Part shown: one piece after another, positions 916 through 8,063 of the stretch
Position numbering within the stretch: position 1 is the stretch's first letter
How the letters are laid out: each line of letters starts with the position of its first letter
Source: a virus
Length of the DNA stretch: 25,777 nt
Virus genome (UHGV): UHGV-1341054
Direction: 5' to 3' (one strand)
Notes under the pieces: model-generated
What the model was told of the DNA's origin: nothing
The model's input: only the letters and a program-made list of their open reading frames with translations
Databases searched by the model: none
Made by a program: the position numbers and the translations under genes

Positions 916-2279
916 TAATCGGCCTCTGGCGATTCTATGGCGATTTCATCATATCCGCCGTCATACTCTGTATCTGACGCGTCGTAATCGCCGTAAATTT
1001 CAGCCGTTGCGGAGGGGTCTATATCCAATTCATCATCGTTGGACTCGAATTCACCTGCCTTACGCTCACCATTTTGGTCATAATCACCACACCCCAGGTC
1101 TTCAACTATTGTTGCCACATCGGCACGGCGATCTGCCAACCACTGCGGATGGTTAGCCTGGAGTGAGGCGAACTCCCGCGCTTCTTTGTCCAGTTGTTCA
1201 TCATCAACATCATTGCTGTCAGAAATTGGCGGTTCCAGAAGCGTGATGGCTTTCGCCGCACGCGCAGCCAGGATTGCAGGAACACTTACCCCTTGCCGCT
1301 CGATGTATTCCGCAACACCTATATCGTCCAGTTCCTCGCGCTCGCGCATACGTATAGCGGTTGCGATAACCCTGGCGGCGCGTGCATCAGCGCCAAGACG
1401 ATAGTCAATCTCTTTGCTACGTTGCTCTGCCTGTAGGCGTGCAATGTCCAGTTTTTCTCTGGCCTCAGCCTCTTTAAATGCCTGCTGCCGCGCCCCCTGA
1501 ATCAGTTTTTCCTGGCCTTGCTGGAGTTTTTGCTCTGTCTGATAAATGGCTGCGAGGCGGCTGATGAAGTCGTTCATGTAATAGGCGGCATCCTGCATGA
1601 GGCCGCAGAGACGCTGGGCCGGGTGCATCCCTTCCGGCTCGCCATCGCCTAAAATATCAATTTCTTTACGTAGCCGTGCCGCCTCCATGTCTACAATTGA
1701 CTGGTATTCTATGGCGCGTTCCTGAGCCATCAGTATGGCCTTACGCAGATGTTCAGCTGCACCGTTCTGCATCATTTCACGGGCGACATTTTTCGACGGC
1801 AAGGTGGCACATTGTGCTGATTCGCCAGGGATCATTTGCAATGATCCCTGACTTGAAGATGCCTTTTTATCCTTTTCTGGGATCATTTTTGCTTTTTTAT
1901 CGGCAAATGATCCCTTTGATAAATCCACTAACTCACTGTTATCAAAGGGCTTATCAGCATGATCCTCGTTACGCTTGCGCGGCATCTCCCTGAATTGACT
2001 TGTCGCTGGCCTATTGTCAGTTTTTGTAAATTCTGATTCTTTTCCGCTCGCTCGTTGTTGTCTTTTTGTCCCACCAGCACGGGGTTGCTGGCGTGTTCTG
2101 GCGCGGTTCTTTGATGGTTTAACTTTGGCCTGCACCTCATTTTTTTTCATATTGAGATGCTTTCTGGCAGTGTTGAAACTAAGGCCATTTTGTTCACAGT
2201 ATTCCTTTACCGTGATCCCTTTTTCCTCTTTCAACGCCAGAAACCGGGCACGATGCTCTTCCCAATTAACCAGTGTCAT
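915..2279 (-). CDS. pacA: Terminase small subunit (PacA-like), 454 aa
   Basis: ORF immediately upstream of and coupled to the large subunit. N-terminus [42 protein letters not shown] looks like a terminase small-subunit HTH. The gene contains a GATC-rich repeat cluster (1828-1914), as the P1 pac site lies inside pacA. Start overlaps the upstream gene stop (ATGA). Confidence 0.65.
1828..1914. other. Candidate pac (packaging initiation) site: four copies of a GATC-containing 9-mer as two inverted pairs
   Basis: GGGATCATT at 1828-1836 and 1879-1887; reverse complement AATGATCCC at 1840-1848 and 1906-1914. Each carries a Dam GATC site. Analogous to the clustered TGATCA/G hexamers of the P1 pac site, but not the same sequence. 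Confidence 0.45.
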
Positions 2280-2668
2280 ACAGCAACACCACGGCGTTTA
2301 ATGGCTTCATTCCACAATCGGTTAGCCATGTTCACCAGTTCACGGCGTTCCGTCTGATTCTTGCCAAAGATAAATCGGTTGGAATTCTTTACAAGCAGGC
2401 GGTCAAACTGCGGTGTACGTCCGCGTACCTTAAACTGATACCCGTCAAGGCCATGAAGCCAGTATTTGCGCGGGTATACGCGGTCATCGCGCTCACAAAT
2501 AGCCCTGCTCGAACGAACAAAGTGACGGATGATATTGTTAACATTGACACGTGACACGTGAAGATGAGGATATTTATCTTTGGCGAGGGTGGTTATCTCA
2601 GTGACTGTAAGATAACAGTCTTTCCTGATCATGATATCCGCTATTTCGGCACTGCTGATTTTATCCAT
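2276..2668 (-). CDS. Hypothetical protein, 130 aa; by position could be a late-gene regulator, unverified
   Basis: ATG at 2668..2666; stop overlaps the pacA start (ATGA). In P1 the gene upstream of pacA is lpa, but the match here is positional only. Confidence 0.55.
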   Translation of the reverse strand: MDKISSAEIADIMIRKDCYLTVTEITTLAKDKYPHLHVSRVNVNNIIRHFVRSSRAICERDDRVYPRKYWLHGLDGYQFKVRGRTPQFDRLLVKNSNRFIFGKNQTERRELVNMANRLWNEAIKRRGVAV

Positions 2669-2779: not shown

Positions 2780-3174
2780 TACCATCTGCTTAAACGAACA
2801 ATATGTCTTACTTTTGCGGACCACTTCCCTTTGGTTTTGTTGACTACCGCCTGCGCCAGCCTTAACTCGCTTTCATAATCAGCCTTGCGCCCATCGTTTT
2901 CCGACAGCAAATAGCCTTCAACTTGTGGTACGGTCAGATAGTCCTGATCAACATTAAGTGGTCCTGTGGGTGCTCTGAACGGCGTTAGTTGCTTTGCGTT
3001 CCAGTTAAATCGAATACGTACGTCACGAACGGCAAGGGTTGCATACCCATGCACGGTACTTTCGTAACCTAGTTTTGTTTCACCTGCATGACATGACGTG
3101 ATTTTGCAGTCAAGCAACGTCCAGTCCATTTCCTTAGCTTGTTCAACTGTTAGCTTCTGCTCTTCGTACATCAA
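2779..3174 (-). CDS. Hypothetical protein, about 130 aa
   Basis: ORF-track TTG start at 3174; a more likely ATG at 3171..3169 overlaps the stop of the upstream gene (translational coupling). Confidence 0.55.
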   Translation of the reverse strand: MMYEEQKLTVEQAKEMDWTLLDCKITSCHAGETKLGYESTVHGYATLAVRDVRIRFNWNAKQLTPFRAPTGPLNVDQDYLTVPQVEGYLLSENDGRKADYESELRLAQAVVNKTKGKWSAKVRHIVRLSRW

Positions 3175-3746
3175 AATGCCTCCCAGTCAGTTGCCATAAT
3201 GTCTACGCTGCTGGCAAACCAGTCAGAACGTGCTTGCAAAGCACCATCCATCATTACCAGACGTGGAAGAATGGAGACTTTGACGCCCTTTTGCACGTTG
3301 AATATTCCTTCCGGAAGAAAGCTAACCATCTTGTCCTTACTTTCAATGCAGCCGGGTTCGAGTGATATGTACTGTCCTTTAGGCCAGGATTTTCGGCGTG
3401 CGTCTAATCCGTTCATTAACCAGTGGATTGCGACAGAAAAAGGAATGTTTGCTTTGGCAATGGAAAGTCCACCAGCGACAGCCTGTTTATGAAACTTGAG
3501 GAGTTTTACAGCGGCCTCGGCAAGCGCAACATAAGGTTCGGGATGGACTTCGGTAAGGCTGCATCCACGAACTGTTACTGTCACAGCATGGGAATCGCCT
3601 TTTGACGCCGTTTCGATGTTGACCCCTTTGTTTGACAGTGCGTGATACAAAGCGTCACCCATGCATGACCAGCGTTCATTGCGTCCAATGAACTCACTCA
3701 AGATGCGGTCCTGCTCTGTATACGTTGCATTAGCCAAAACAGTCAT
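3171..3746 (-). CDS. Hypothetical protein, 191 aa
   Basis: ATG at 3746 preceded by a strong SD (AGGAGAGG, 4 nt spacer); contiguous with and coupled to the downstream gene. Confidence 0.65.
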   Translation of the reverse strand: MTVLANATYTEQDRILSEFIGRNERWSCMGDALYHALSNKGVNIETASKGDSHAVTVTVRGCSLTEVHPEPYVALAEAAVKLLKFHKQAVAGGLSIAKANIPFSVAIHWLMNGLDARRKSWPKGQYISLEPGCIESKDKMVSFLPEGIFNVQKGVKVSILPRLVMMDGALQARSDWFASSVDIMATDWEAF

Positions 3747-3984
3747 AACCTCTCCTTTCCTACAGACGTAACTATTCCCCGGATACCCGGTAGTGTGTGT
3801 CTTGTTTCGTATTAGTATGAGATACAGCCTTAGCGACTATATGATGGGTTGAGATAGGGTTGTGGCGGTGGTGCCTCCACCTGCCAGGACAGCCACCCCT
3901 GGCGACGACACTTACCAGAACGATTTTGTTTATACAAAAAAGTTGAAGAAAATGGCTTCGTCACGTGCGCATAGCCGCAATTAC

Positions 3985-4095
3985 CACAACGGTAAGGATG
4001 TTCATTGCATCGACCGTCAAGGGCTGCTTTTCGATGATGACTCTACTTCGCAAGCGATAATGACGCGCTAATCAAACACCCTTACCTGTTATGTG
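3985..4095. repeat. Conserved-arm hairpin E1 (CACAACGGTAAGG ... CCTTACCTGTTATGTG)
   Basis: Left arm 3985-3997, right arm 4079-4095. Arms are reverse complements apart from one extra T in the right arm; about 81-nt loop. Confidence 0.4.
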
Positions 4096-4275
4096 CCGTG
4101 CTCTTCCGGCTGTCACACCGAATCGCCAGGATGGTGAGTCCTCGGTCCGACGATATGAACGGGGCTTGCACATTCCGGCTACCTGATGTGCCCATACAGT
4201 GTTAGTAAAAGGTACCTAACAGCTACACCAGACCGCTATCGACGCATGTGCCATACGCCGTGTTACAACCAAATA

Positions 4276-4351
4276 TGGTGGCCCCTACCGGACTTGAACC
4301 GATGACCGTGCGATTATGAGTCGCCAGCTCTAACCACTGAGCTAAGGGGCC
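4276..4351 (-). tRNA. tRNA with anticodon CAU, most like tRNA-Ile2 (lysidine type); Met not excluded
   Basis: Minus-strand 76 nt GGCCCCTTAGCTCAGTGGTTAGAGCTGGCGACTCATAATCGCACGGTCATCGGTTCAAGTCCGGTAGGGGCCACCA. 7-bp acceptor stem, D and T arms, anticodon loop CTCATAA, encoded CCA. Closely resembles E. coli ileX as recalled from memory. Confidence 0.85.
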
Positions 4352-4357
4352 GGATTA

Positions 4358-4462
4358 CTATTTACTAAGTGCTTCAATGGCGCTAACAATGCCGCCTACA
4401 ACTATGGCAACAATAATAATGAGAACAATTGGATACTTGTCAGCAAAATCCCAGAATCCCAT
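4358..4462 (-). CDS. Small hydrophobic peptide, 34 aa (MGFWDFADKYPIVLIIIVAIVVGGIVSAIEALSK)
   Basis: ATG at 4462..4460 preceded by SD GAAGGA (6 nt spacer). One predicted TM helix. Stop TAG at 4358-4360 lies 6 nt before the tRNA-Ile 5' end. Start overlaps the stop of the upstream small ORF (TGATG). Not in the ORF track (under 60 aa). Confidence 0.4.
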   Translation of the reverse strand: MGFWDFADKYPIVLIIIVAIVVGGIVSAIEALSK

Positions 4463-4665
4463 CACTGATCCTTCGAAGCTATTTTAAATATCGGCCATAC
4501 CAATGTTACGGCTACTGCCACCAACGCCCCGTCCGATAAAACCGACAGGATTGTGCTGGTGAAATCCACCAGCACGGACAGCTTGAGCACCATGCTCCCT
4601 ACTCTCCAATTGTTGTGGTTACCGGTACTGATCTCCGGCTTAGCGACCCCGGCTACTGACTGCAT
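4462..4665 (-). CDS. Small membrane protein, 67 aa from ATG 4665, or 43 aa from internal ATG 4593
   Basis: Hydrophobic C-terminal half (ALVAVAVTLVWPIF). Internal ATG at 4593 has SD GGAGAG; the 4665 start has a weak RBS. Coupled to the downstream 34-aa ORF. Confidence 0.3.
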   Translation of the reverse strand: MQSVAGVAKPEISTGNHNNWRVGSMVLKLSVLVDFTSTILSVLSDGALVAVAVTLVWPIFKIASKDQ

Positions 4666-4733
4666 TGCAGTGTGTGAACTCGCCTCGTGTGTCGCTGGGG
4701 CATTTCTTTCCGCGCATCAGTCTGCGCATCAAC

Positions 4734-4809
4734 CACAACGGAAAGAGCATTGGCTAACCAGGCTCGCCGACTCTTCACGATTATCGGCTCAATGCTCTTA
4801 CCTGTTGTG
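4734..4809. repeat. Conserved-arm hairpin E2 (CACAACGGAAAGAGCATTG ... CAATGCTCTTACCTGTTGTG)
   Basis: Left arm 4734-4752, right arm 4790-4809, about 19 bp with mismatches and one extra T in the right arm. The 37-nt loop holds an inner hairpin GCCGA...TCGGC. Confidence 0.4.
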
Positions 4810-4987
4810 CGCTCCGTTTCGTGGAGCTAACGGCGGGTGATCGGGCCGCACCAGACTGGACTTATTTCAGCGTTATGCTCATGCCAGAGAATCAAACTGT
4901 GATGGTCGGTGCTGAACTCCGACACAGGGTTGTAGCAAGCCCCGCAAAGCGCGCACTACTGTAGTTGCGGCACATCAGCCTGTGCAT

Positions 4988-5088
4988 TCACCACAATGTT
5001 GAGAACACTGGTTGTCACGCTGCAACGCAACATTTATTCGTAAATTGGGATATGACCCCGTTACGACAGTGTTCTCAACGTTGTAGTG
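4988..5088. repeat. Long hairpin E3, 14-bp perfect core stem with CACAA/TTGTG-type base
   Basis: TGTTGAGAACACTG (4997-5010) pairs with CAGTGTTCTCAACG (5067-5080); the flanking CACCACAA and TTGTAGTG extend the stem imperfectly; 56-nt loop. Confidence 0.35.
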
Positions 5089-5224
5089 CCGGTTACGGTT
5101 CCGGCCAGGTCTCTTCCTCAACGGGGTGTTCTCCATACGGGCTACCGTTTATTGGTCGTTCCTGCGGTTTATGTTGTGAAGCCAGATGCTTATCTTCTGG
5201 TTGCTTCTAAGAGCTGCACTTCAT

Positions 5225-5311
5225 CACAACGGTAAGGGTACTTCGTAGGGATTCGAACCCTCTGCCAAGCACGGCGATCTCCGACGTCGCAAAATACCCT
5301 TACCTGTTGTG
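5225..5311 (-). ncRNA. tRNA-like fragment (T-arm mimic) enclosed by conserved-arm hairpin E4, directly 3' of tRNA-Thr
   Basis: Arms CACAACGGTAAGGGTA (5225-5240) and TACCCTTACCTGTTGTG (5295-5311). Interior contains GGGTTCGAATCCC (T-stem-loop with TTCGAAT) but no matching D or anticodon arms and no CCA. Right arm ends 1 nt from the tRNA-Thr 3' end. Confidence 0.35.
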
Positions 5312-5312
5312 T

Positions 5313-5388
5313 TGGGGCCGATTAACGGACTCGAACCGCTGACATCCTGCTTACAAGGCAGGCGCTCTACCAACTGAGCTAAATCGGC
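5313..5388 (-). tRNA. tRNA-Thr (anticodon UGU)
   Basis: Minus-strand 76 nt GCCGATTTAGCTCAGTTGGTAGAGCGCCTGCCTTGTAAGCAGGATGTCAGCGGTTCGAGTCCGTTAATCGGCCCCA. Canonical cloverleaf, anticodon loop CTTGTAA, encoded CCA. Confidence 0.9.
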
Positions 5389-5390
5389 AC

Positions 5391-5465
5391 TGGCGATGGT
5401 GAGTGGATTCGAACCACCGACCAGTTGGTTAACAGCCAACTGCTCTACCGCTGAGCTACACCATC
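5391..5465 (-). tRNA. tRNA-Asn (anticodon GUU)
   Basis: Minus-strand 75 nt GATGGTGTAGCTCAGCGGTAGAGCAGTTGGCTGTTAACCAACTGGTCGGTGGTTCGAATCCACTCACCATCGCCA. Canonical cloverleaf, anticodon loop CTGTTAA, encoded CCA. Lies 2 nt upstream of tRNA-Thr. Confidence 0.9.
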
Positions 5466-5662
5466 AATTACCGGGTACGTCTCCGGCAAGGGCTTCCACC
5501 TTCGTATGCTTTTCGGCGCACCGCGCCCTGGCTGCAATTCGGTAACAGGGAGTGCATGACCCTGGCTTCCGGCGTAGTTAGCGCCTTCCGCATGACGGGA
5601 TATACCCGCTTAGGTTTGGAACTGTCCAAATGCTGTTAAGCACCGGCTGCTGCGCGAGTTGC

Positions 5663-5745
5663 CACAACAGATAAGGACGCTGCCAAGAAAGACCTGACCC
5701 TTCTCATTCATCTGGTTAATCACACCAGCGCCCTTACCTGTTATG
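5663..5745. repeat. Conserved-arm hairpin E5 (CACAACAGATAAGGACGC ... GCGCCCTTACCTGTTATG)
   Basis: Left arm 5663-5680, right arm 5728-5745, 15 of 18 complementary; lies upstream (in minus sense) of the tRNA-Asn/Thr pair. Confidence 0.4.
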
Positions 5746-5926
5746 ACTCCCCGTTCTTTAATACACAGACGGGAAAACTCTGCGGTCGATTTCTTGACGG
5801 GGGGCGACTCATACCCCGTGGCGTCAGGCTTCTTAGGCCGCTACCATCATCAGATCATCGTTTGCATTTACTTTAATGGTCGGTTTCTAAACCGCCGCAA
5901 AGTCGCTAACCATGACGAAAACACTG

Positions 5927-5951
5927 AAAAAAAGCCCACCCGGAGATGGGC
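5927..5951 (-). terminator. Candidate rho-independent terminator (minus strand)
   Basis: In minus sense: GCCCA-TCTCCGGG-TGGGC followed by TTTTTTT (A-run 5927-5933 on the plus strand). Confidence 0.45.
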
Positions 5952-5970
5952 AAATACGCTACATCTCACA

Positions 5971-6049
5971 CAAGAAAGAAGCCGACTGCCTGAGCTGGAT
6001 CCACTTTCAAATGCCCGCAGAAAGGGATCACAAGTCGGCTTCTTTCTTG
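5971..6049 (-). ncRNA. Large hairpin (17-bp perfect stem plus inner inverted repeat), candidate structured sRNA ending at the 5927-5951 terminator
   Basis: CAAGAAAGAAGCCGACT (5971-5987) pairs perfectly with AGTCGGCTTCTTTCTTG (6033-6049). Inner arms GATCCACTTTC and GAAAGGGATC. The overlapping ORFs on both strands look spurious. Confidence 0.3.
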
Positions 6050-6265
6050 ATGCGGCACTCTCTCCGCCCGTCACCGCTCTGTCTCGGTTGTCGCGTTTGC
6101 CACGCCAGCCGTAACGAGGTTTAAAGTCTTTGCACGTTTCCATCACTCGACTGCCGTCTGTGGCTGTTCGTTGCGGCGGGGGTGCCTCCCCCTGGGGATA
6201 TCCCCGGCCTTACCCCATTCTTTCAAGACACAATGCAAGGCCACATCCGCATAGGTGCATTACCG

Positions 6266-6331
6266 CAACATTAAGGAGACTCAGGGCAAAAGATACTCGC
6301 CACAAAAAATCCCTATGCCTCCTTAATGTTG
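6266..6331. repeat. Hairpin with 13-bp perfect stem (CAACATTAAGGAG ... CTCCTTAATGTTG)
   Basis: Perfect reverse-complement arms at 6266-6278 and 6319-6331 with a 40-nt loop; no adjacent T-run. Confidence 0.35.
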
Positions 6332-6552
6332 AGGATGTGCATTGATGATGACCCGAAGCAGCCTGGCCCACTAAGCACGTTTCTCTGCCAGATCATCATC
6401 ACTGCACGCCCTGAATGCATTGCCATCCGTGGCGTTGAGGTCGCTTGTTGTTTACTCCGCAAAATGCACTTTTGGAGAACACTTTATGGAGCATCATCAG
6501 TTCCTGCTGACCTGTTCTTGCCATTTGCACGGGCGCCTGGCTTACGCATTAT

Positions 6553-6742: not shown

Positions 6743-8063
6743 TCATCTCCCGTACAAATCTTCAACACCGCCGTTCTTTTTATCCCACTCATTCGCCCAT
6801 ACCCGACAGGAATCAATGATTTCCTGTCGGCAGTCGCCCTGCATGAATGGCAACTCGTCATGAAAGTTGCTTGGGATGCAGGCCACACTGAAAACAGTAT
6901 CAAATCCGGCGTCCTTGATGCCTTCCATCGTCTCAGGGCGCATTTTTAACTCGTCAACCGGGGCATCTTTGGCATCCATAATGCGTCGATGCAAGCGAGG
7001 ATAATCCTCTTCAAGGTACGCCATAATCTTATTGTGAAGGCATTCGTCGATGTCGTTGTTCCAGTCTTTGGCAAACTCAGGCATTCGGTAATAAAGTGGC
7101 GTTCCCCAAACTGACGGGATCACATCCATTGTCAGCAAACGGTTTGTTCTAATTTGCAGGTGATAGTTAGCAGTAAGTAATGATTCTCCCCGCTGTCCGG
7201 TTTCCATCTCAAGAAAGTCGTTTTTTTCCGCATGAATAAAATCTGNNNNNNNNNNGGCCATGTGGGTATTCGTGAATATAAGCAACCGCATCCCTGCCAT
7301 CGTACATGAGCGGGAAAGATTCCGGGCGTTCTGGCATACCGCAGGCGCGATTCAGATCATACCCAAGCTGAGAACATTCACTCTTTAACTTCTCGATGAT
7401 AGCCTGAGCAGAAGCAAGTTTCTTACGCAGGCTTACGTTCTCGCCCTGGTATTTAATGCTCACTTTGTTCAGTTCGGATACACGCTCTTTAAGTTCGCGG
7501 CGTTCTCTTTTAAGGGAACGGTTATCTCTCTCGCTGTCATCCAGGCGTTTTGCCAGGCTGGACGGGAAGTCTTTCTTATAGCGCCGTAAATCTGACTCTG
7601 CCGCTGCGCGTAGCGTGTTGGCCTGCTGGAGACTGGCTTCAAGTGTACCGATCTCTCTTTTATGCTGTTCTGCATACTCAGTAATGATTTCACCCAGCGT
7701 CTCCGCCGTGGCGCTCATACCGGTAGCATGGGAAAAACTGATCAGGCTGGCGTTAACGACACGCTGAAATTCTTCGAACTGATCAACCAGGGCGTTGTAG
7801 TCTGATGCACCCGCATCCAGTAGCTGATTGATGTCATTTACAAGGTTATCTGCTGTGGCAAGAGTGCTTTCAAAAAGGCGTTTTGACAGGTCATCTCCGG
7901 CAGTCCGCTTTTGTAACAACTGTATCTGGCTGCGGAGTGTATCGATATCCGCAGAAATGATGTCTTCNNNNNNNNNNATCAAGGACAAGGCAGAGTCAAT
8001 GGGTTGGAAAGAAGGTCAGAAATGATGTCTTCGGTGGAGGAGGTTACTGCTTGCTGACTCATG
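6743..8063 (-). CDS. Hypothetical protein, about 440 aa, N-terminal coiled-coil region; reading frame broken by two 10-N gaps
   Basis: ORF-track pieces 7209..7988 and 6743..7300 are protein-like only on opposite sides of the N run at 7246-7255, consistent with one gene and an arbitrary gap length. The likely true start is ATG at 8063 (SD AAGGA): MSQQAVTSSTEDIIS, whose EDIIS is encoded by a 16-mer duplicated either side of the N run at 7968-7977. Confidence 0.5.

Follow-up and report, generated by a model that had tools for sequence, protein, structure and literature searches.

The distal end of the P1 tciABC cassette in a P1-like phage-plasmid: an intact tciC and a probable remnant of tciB next to tRNA-Ile2

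In the genome record of phage P1, the genes tciA, tciB and tciC are followed by the tRNA gene trnI and by ban, and adjacent genes share one-base overlaps. The tciA product is TerB-like, intact TciB (P1_gp075; DUF3927/PF13064; phrog_1470) is normally a protein of 54 amino acids with two hydrophobic segments, and TciC (P1_gp076; phrog_23152) is a peptide of 35 amino acids. The cassette occupies the ban-operon region of P1-like phage-plasmids, with tRNA-Asn/Thr(/Ser) genes on one side and tRNA-Ile2 on the other. It is known from annotation as a functionally uncharacterised accessory cassette, and an exclusion or defence-type role is a guess that already stands in the P1 annotation. In P1, tciABC is non-essential by CRISPRi, the knock-down of tciB or tciC having no fitness effect (PMC10695390). 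The cassette is also listed among eight variable regions and has been lost from about half of the P1 subgroup-1 elements (PMC9603915). [quoted passage not shown] In contrast to the ter operons, tciABC has no demonstrated tellurite, colicin or phage phenotype, and within the DNA analysed here the TerB gene is deleted, so that no TerB ORF is left, and no other ter gene (terZACDE) is found.

Here we report the analysis of a copy of this locus in a stretch of 25,777 nt (the window), which is a P1-like phage-plasmid with 99.8% identity to Shigella dysenteriae plasmids. Four S. dysenteriae plasmids of ~80 kb match at 99.8% identity across 449 bp spanning the two ORFs under study, and P1 is 86-93% identical to the flanks of the locus. 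Two runs of the window are masked as N (7246-7255 and 7968-7977). A first-pass annotation had described two small hydrophobic ORFs with a TGATG overlap, a GAAGGA Shine-Dalgarno (SD) sequence for the second of them, and a distance of 6 nt from its end to a tRNA-Ile gene; all of these elements are present, on the minus strand. The ORFs, which had been left unnamed, can now be named from their matches to PF13064, phrog_1470 and phrog_23152 together with the P1 gene order, and on this evidence we assign the upstream ORF to P1 tciB and the downstream ORF to P1 tciC, both of them genes already known and annotated since the P1 genome record. The window copy of the cassette is decayed. The best overall explanation, to which we give a probability of about 0.8, is that the locus represents the distal remnant of tciABC, with tciC intact, tciB truncated at its 5' end, and a proposed TerB-tethering membrane assembly lost. 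The neighbours of the unit in the window are tRNA genes, a Tad2-like gene, an Lpa-like gene and ban, and the unit itself consists of the following features.

4462-4593, minus strand: tciB' in its 43-aa form, with ATG at 4593-4591, an alternative GTG at 4590-4588, and stop codon TGA at 4464-4462
4358-4462, minus strand: tciC, encoding a single-pass peptide of 34 aa, with ATG at 4462-4460 and stop codon TAG at 4360-4358
4469-4474, minus strand: Shine-Dalgarno sequence GAAGGA of tciC, 6 nt 5' of its ATG and within the 3' end of tciB
4581-4607, minus strand: stump of tRNA-Ser(UGA), the first 27 nt of the gene (31 nt with one mismatch, to 4577)
4577-4582, minus strand: deletion junction, where nucleotide 27 of trnS meets codon 15 of tciB
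4276-4351, minus strand: tRNA-Ile2 (anticodon CAT, ileX-like; P1 trnI), beginning 6 nt after the tciC stop codon

The product of tciC is MGFWDFADKYPIVLIIIVAIVVGGIVSAIEALSK, or 35 aa if read from the GTG at 4465. It matches phrog_23152 over its full length (E value 2.9e-23, residues 2-35 on profile positions 1-34) and is 74% identical to P1 TciC, with which it shares the N-terminal motif MGFWDFADK(H/Y)P, a single transmembrane helix, the overlap with the tciB stop codon, tRNA-Ile2 as the next gene, and the length class (34 aa in the window, 35 aa in P1). A 19-residue stretch (residues 11-29) has a Kyte-Doolittle mean of 2.98, so that the single transmembrane segment is assigned by hydropathy only. 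The window peptide differs from that of P1 by conservative I/V/A/G/S exchanges in the helix and is of the 'Y10/IIIV' allele, whose distribution does not follow the tciA type. It is also one residue shorter, a CAG-to-TAG change having placed a stop codon ahead of the ancestral TAA (4357-4355); the six nucleotides TAATCC (4357-4352) now lie between this TAG and the 5' end of the tRNA. The gap from the tciC stop codon to the tRNA is thus 6 nt in the window; it measures 3 nt in the majority of P1-like loci and 9 nt in D6-type loci.

At the same place, D6-type loci encode a diverged 36-aa peptide (MDFWTYIDKNPGW...) whose gene overlaps tciB in the same way, is preceded by an AGGA at identical spacing, and has tRNA-Ile2 behind it. 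The AGGA core is held at this spacing in the P1-type and D6-type loci despite differences in the TciB residues that it overlaps. The D6-type peptide matches phrog_23152 weakly (E value 0.15), and BLASTP detects no similarity between it and TciC; since the sequence similarity is marginal, we treat this peptide as a positional counterpart, and its homology to TciC is not proven. Further searches with TciC returned P1 and P7 relatives only (tblastn against phages, with poor E-values due to the low-complexity filter) and its own cluster only (phmmer against 1.84 billion representatives), and neither TciB nor TciC has a match among the defence profiles of PADLOC or in NCBIfam. The remark of the first-pass annotation that the 34-aa ORF is easily missed is borne out by its absence from the partial gene table of the matching Shigella plasmids.

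ORFs as short as these arise by chance, so the real evidence that they are genes lies in the conservation of both reading frames in ~80 related loci. The comparison set comprised 80 IMG/VR loci and two genome loci, all of them encoding DUF3927. The tciC frame is intact and preceded by the TGATG overlap, in which the A is shared by the tciB stop codon TGA and the tciC start codon ATG, in all of the loci that carry the gene (70/70; 70 of 81 loci). Variable sites in the tciB core of the P1-like loci are distributed over the three codon positions as 2/2/14, and 36 of the 54 TciB protein columns are invariant. In tciC the corresponding distribution is 7/6/11, with a dN/dS of 0.4-0.8 and amino acid changes that are conservative exchanges inside the helix; tciC is under weaker constraint than tciB and evolves fairly fast. 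The conservation that the first-pass annotation had proposed to look for in related phages is thus found for both frames, and judged from these comparative data both ORFs are genuine, conserved genes for predicted small membrane proteins.

The state of tciB in the window is different from that of tciC. TciB' scores well above the Pfam gathering threshold for PF13064 (75 bits with a cutoff of 25; E value 4.5e-21) and also matches phrog_1470 ('TciB-like'; E value 8e-16), with the PF13064 match covering only profile positions 13-53 of 53. Full-length two-segment architecture is therefore not found in TciB', the first segment of which is without its N-terminal part, LILALVFLV / IAIAIGFLL; the 43-aa form has a GRAVY value of 1.25. 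Like P1 TciB, it lies right before tciC and trnI with the identical TGATG overlap, and the C-terminal 39 residues are 92% identical (36/39). Unlike P1 tciB, it lacks the first 14 codons and the native start codon, takes its start from a fragment of tRNA-Ser, and has no tciA upstream. The frame remains open further upstream to an ATG at 4665 (67 aa), which has no SD sequence, and codons 1-24 of this longer reading are tRNA-spacer and tRNA sequence, that is, non-coding.

The origin of this structure can be read from the related locus L018, which matches the window at 99.5% identity on both flanks and carries the intact order trnS(UGA)-tciA-tciB-tciC-trnI. Relative to L018, ~800 bp are missing from the window, including the 3' two-thirds of trnS, the spacer, all of tciA, which encodes a TerB-domain protein of 141-144 aa, and codons 1-14 of tciB; the deletion takes the N-terminal half of the first and most hydrophobic TciB segment. 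At the junction we found a GC microhomology within an imperfect match of 8 of 11 positions. The stump was identified by alignment with two intact trnS genes, those of L018 (1713-1799) and phage CMS-2020a. An intact tRNA-Ser(UGA) gene is located at the same place in L018, in D6-type elements and in CMS-2020a/SSU5-like elements, and E. coli plasmid matches to the stump carry a tRNA-Ser annotation. The homology to ~600 plasmids and to P1 breaks off at 4582, inside tciB. None of 5,426 complete E. coli genomes contains the junction; it is present in the four S. dysenteriae plasmids and in one slightly diverged ENA contig (protein P0001). As a separate observation, the tRNA set of the region (Asn, Thr, Tyr, Ser, Ile2) differs among the relatives.

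The apparent translation signals of the 43-aa ORF, namely GGAGAG, GGGAG and the ATG/GTG start codons, are the acceptor and D-arm sequences of the tRNA-Ser stump. The distance to the ATG is 10 nt from GGAG and 1 nt from GGGAG, and the distance to the GTG is 4 nt. The ATG of the stump, and with it the GTG, has come into frame with tciB by a one-in-three chance, so that an ORF of 43 or 67 aa still appears. What had been described as a 43-67 aa membrane protein thus turns out, from the L018 alignment, to be a 5'-truncated tciB with its start in a tRNA-Ser fragment and with tciA deleted. The same correction applies to the Shigella plasmids, in which PGAP labels the 43-aa form as 'DUF3927 family protein': this annotated protein is the product of a truncated gene that starts within a tRNA fragment. 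We conclude that tciB' is most likely a remnant that is weakly translated or untranslated. Its open frame, with ATG and GTG codons after GGAGAG and GGGAG, may nevertheless permit translation and some activity.

The composition of the cassette in other lineages provides the basis for a proposal about what has been lost. All 82 of the 82 DUF3927 loci have a TerB-like ORF of 141-146 aa directly upstream, ending at the tciB start; these ORFs were called TerB by similarity to Pfam-verified TerB proteins. In the window no such upstream TerB ORF with a stop/start overlap is present, tciA having been deleted. We observed the TerB and DUF3927 pair in P1, P7-like, D6 and SSU5-like (~110-kb) elements and in an Aeromonadaceae MAG, and a published survey lists it in pSLy3-type phage-plasmids too (PMC9600943). 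The combination of tciC and the tRNA gene occurs in the P1 and D6 types only. Since TerB and DUF3927 are found together in all lineages sampled and tciC in P1/D6 only, the cassette is best described as an invariant core with TciC as a P1/D6-specific add-on, which tightens the hypothesis on the P1 cassette. Some database variants of tciB (P0007, P0009-P0012) have frameshifted C-termini, and one of them is a 90-aa TciB-TciC fusion; these variants indicate frequent decay or sequencing errors at the locus.

In intact cassettes, the three genes would be translated in a coupled manner, because each stop codon overlaps the next start codon. Their products may come together at the inner membrane in a small assembly, with TciB, joined by TciC in the P1/D6-type elements, as the tether or partner of the soluble TerB-like protein TciA. 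This model of a membrane partner of TerB is based on gene order, overlapping stop and start codons, and hydrophobicity only. A possible parallel for the tethering is DjlA, in which a TerB domain is attached to a membrane anchor, the match of TciA to DjlA being weak and far below the cutoff. The cassette would then be a dispensable accessory ('moron') function, possibly related to stress, exclusion or division. In the window the TerB-dependent function would have been lost, and tciC is probably still made from its own SD sequence. Regarding control of the unit, the P1 C1 operator consensus ATTGCTCTAATAAATTT has no match in the whole window, even with 3 mismatches, and C1 control of the tciB'-tciC unit can therefore not be claimed here. 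A promoter and terminator scan found nothing above chance apart from a dicF-like terminator, and no promoter for the unit.

A remnant with an intact distal gene is not the only reading of these data. The deletion allele could instead encode a functional membrane module of TciB' (43 aa) and TciC (34 aa) that works without TciA and is kept by selection; this small pair might, for example, serve in exclusion, perturb the membrane or inhibit division. Such a module would explain that the truncated ORF still has an in-frame start codon and an SD-like sequence, that TciC is intact, and that the same allele is found in the four plasmids and in the slightly diverged ENA contig; a 35-aa TciC-like peptide with 46% identity in an unrelated phage that has neither TerB nor DUF3927 also agrees with it. 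However, an in-frame junction arises in one of three cases by chance, the SD spacing to the ATG is poor (10 or 1 nt), the most hydrophobic segment of TciB has lost half of its length, TerB lies upstream of the other DUF3927 genes in 82/82 cases, and the four plasmids are one near-identical lineage that says little on selection, so we regard a selected TciB'-TciC pair as improbable. A further possibility, that one or both frames are fortuitous and lie in non-coding tRNA-spacer DNA, draws on the frequency with which ORFs of 34-67 codons occur by chance and on the position of the start codon and 5' 24 codons of the 67-aa ORF in tRNA-spacer and tRNA sequence. It is contradicted for the homologous parts by the 2/2/14 codon-position pattern of tciB, by profile E values of 1e-16 to 1e-23, and by the conserved overlap and SD sequence together with the diverged D6-type tciC at the same place; this explanation holds for codons 1-24 of the 67-aa reading only, and for the unit as a whole it is very improbable.

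Two further readings follow from likenesses pointed out in the first-pass annotation, and neither likeness is sustained. In size and in their single hydrophobic helix, the peptides recall Hok, Ldr, Ibs and TisB as well as small phage exclusion and lysis peptides, and the locus could accordingly be a type I toxin-antitoxin-like system with one or two hydrophobic peptides under an antisense RNA. The tci products have no sequence relationship to those peptides, no antisense RNA and no promoter of their own, and are encoded by operon-internal coupled genes, with overlapping stop and start codons and a tRNA gene 6 nt further on. No toxin family in Pfam, NCBIfam or PADLOC and no Rfam antitoxin RNA is matched; a consensus scan, which is a weak method, found no promoter-like site on the plus strand in 3900-6400, the antisense signal not exceeding chance, and none above chance on the sense strand; and the knock-down of tciB or tciC in P1 is without fitness effect, all of which leaves a type I system with very little probability. 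For a holin/antiholin or other lysis-timing pair, one could cite two small membrane proteins translated together and the GTG-ATG start of tciC, which superficially recalls dual-start holins. This pairing is the least credible of the alternatives: no holin family is matched, no endolysin or spanin is adjacent, the SD spacing to the tciC GTG is 3 nt only, and in P1 the genes are non-essential and sit in the C1-controlled early ban operon, the P1 lysis genes lydA, lydB and lyz being located elsewhere.

A distal remnant of tciABC leaves room for a different view of its intact gene, in which TciC would belong to an autonomous family of 35-aa single-pass membrane peptides, with an FWDFADKH N-terminal motif and a basic C-terminal tail, and would not be a subunit of a TerB/DUF3927 assembly. 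The survival of an intact tciC after the destruction of tciA and tciB fits this view, as does the independent assortment of tciC alleles and tciA types. A search with a 7-residue pattern found a further locus (L273, IMGVR_UViG_3300034818_000017), in which positions 1501-1608 of the plus strand encode a 35-aa peptide, MTFWDFADKHSLDVVFGLLLICGAFVGCIEAWRSR, that shares 46% identity with P1 TciC from end to end. Its gene is part of an early operon, with a Cro-like HTH gene, in an unrelated phage of high GC content; it is next to an ERF recombinase gene and has no TerB, DUF3927 or tRNA gene beside it. By this similarity and setting, the peptide hints at an autonomous TciC, although the phmmer search with TciC found no relatives outside its own cluster. 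The absence of tciC from most DUF3927 lineages may likewise place it outside the TerB module altogether. We consider an autonomous TciC unlikely; if true, TciC would act alone on a host membrane target, and the 3' end of its mRNA in P1-like elements would be set by RNase P cleavage at the abutting tRNA-Ile2.

The tRNA gene that follows tciC is labelled tRNA-Met(CAT) by ARAGORN and tRNA-Ile by PGAP and in the P1 record, and is 89.5% identical to chromosomal copies. The presence of this tRNA-Ile2(CAT) gene a few nucleotides downstream, together with the overlap of the tciC start and tciB stop codons, assigns the window peptide to TciC by position as well. RNase P cleaves tRNA precursors at their 5' ends as part of established tRNA processing, and the corresponding cut at tRNA-Ile would create an mRNA 3' end 6 nt after the tciC stop codon.

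Several other features of the window were noted. Between tRNA-Ile and ban, a 191-aa ORF (3171-3746, minus strand) has a C-terminal Tad2-like domain (Thoeris anti-defence 2-like, PF11195; E value 7e-11) and matches phrog_7362; the identical Shigella plasmid protein is labelled 'MW1434 family type I TA system toxin' by PGAP, and going by the domain match this ORF is a possible anti-defence gene. Directly upstream of ban, on the side of the tRNA-Ile region, a 130-aa ORF (2276-2668, minus strand) matches the P1 late promoter-activating protein family PF25716 (E value 6e-48); in P1, lpa lies at another location. A strong intrinsic terminator, GCCCATCTCCGGGTGGGC followed by T7, is found at 5927-5954 (minus strand), at the end of the P1 'dicF-like' region, and just 3' of it (5781-5940, minus strand) there are sub-threshold Rfam matches to permuted and alpha tmRNA (24 and 12 bits). 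The P1 upl and plp ORFs correspond to 4773-5342 on the plus strand, antisense to hairpins and tRNA-Thr; in the window upl is without its start and the plp frame is interrupted by a stop at codon 82, although the DNA is ~93% conserved, and the two are probably not protein genes.

There is nothing surprising about tciB' and tciC themselves. In our view, the more interesting lead is a widespread hairpin whose stem is constant and whose interior varies, common to P1-like tRNA regions and lambdoid late leaders. One copy had been placed by the first-pass annotation in the putative leader of the ORFs as E2; this structure is real and lies 5' of both ORFs (X3 below). X0 and X3 flank the tciB'-tciC-trnI unit on either side.

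4733-4809, minus strand: hairpin X3 (E2 of the first-pass annotation), ~140 nt 5' of tciB', MFE -43 kcal/mol, z -3.2
~4722-4705, minus strand: small hairpin after X3
3984-4093, minus strand: hairpin X0, 3' of tRNA-Ile, MFE -38.2 kcal/mol, z -2.4
5745-5663, 5311-5224 and ~5090-4985, minus strand: other long hairpins

The five long hairpins have fold z-scores of -2.4 to -6.7, and four of them share the consensus arms CACAACAGGTAAGAGCATTG ... CAGTGCTCTTTCCGTTGTG of ~20 bp, the one at ~5090-4985 having variant arms. A pattern scan of IMG/VR yielded at least 120 stretches with at least 86 distinct sequences. Among the matches listed, the seven stem positions that the pattern left free form pairs in 81-86 of the 86 sequences, and compensatory changes occur there. 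The interiors are 45-65 nt long, hypervariable and divided among at least 41 unrelated groups, and a T-loop-like GTTCGAATC is present in 26 of the 86 interiors listed (~30%). X3 is 97% identical to phage lambda late-leader DNA, starting 8 nt after the tR' U-tract, and in lambdoid phages the element is located between Q and the holin gene, in the company of three unrelated Q-antiterminator families and three holin families. No Rfam family matches the hairpin, and no copy was found in the quuD-essD region of the K-12 prophage DLP12. RNase III processing sites in lambda late RNA were reportedly described by Daniels et al. in 1988, a study cited in PMC7547250. As a lead, the hairpins may act as processing stems for RNase III or represent a small-RNA cassette. 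The window also differs from L018 by 470 nt bounded by CAC(n)ACAAC motifs, and because of these boundaries the hairpin arms may in addition serve as recombination points that shuffle units of tRNA and small genes.
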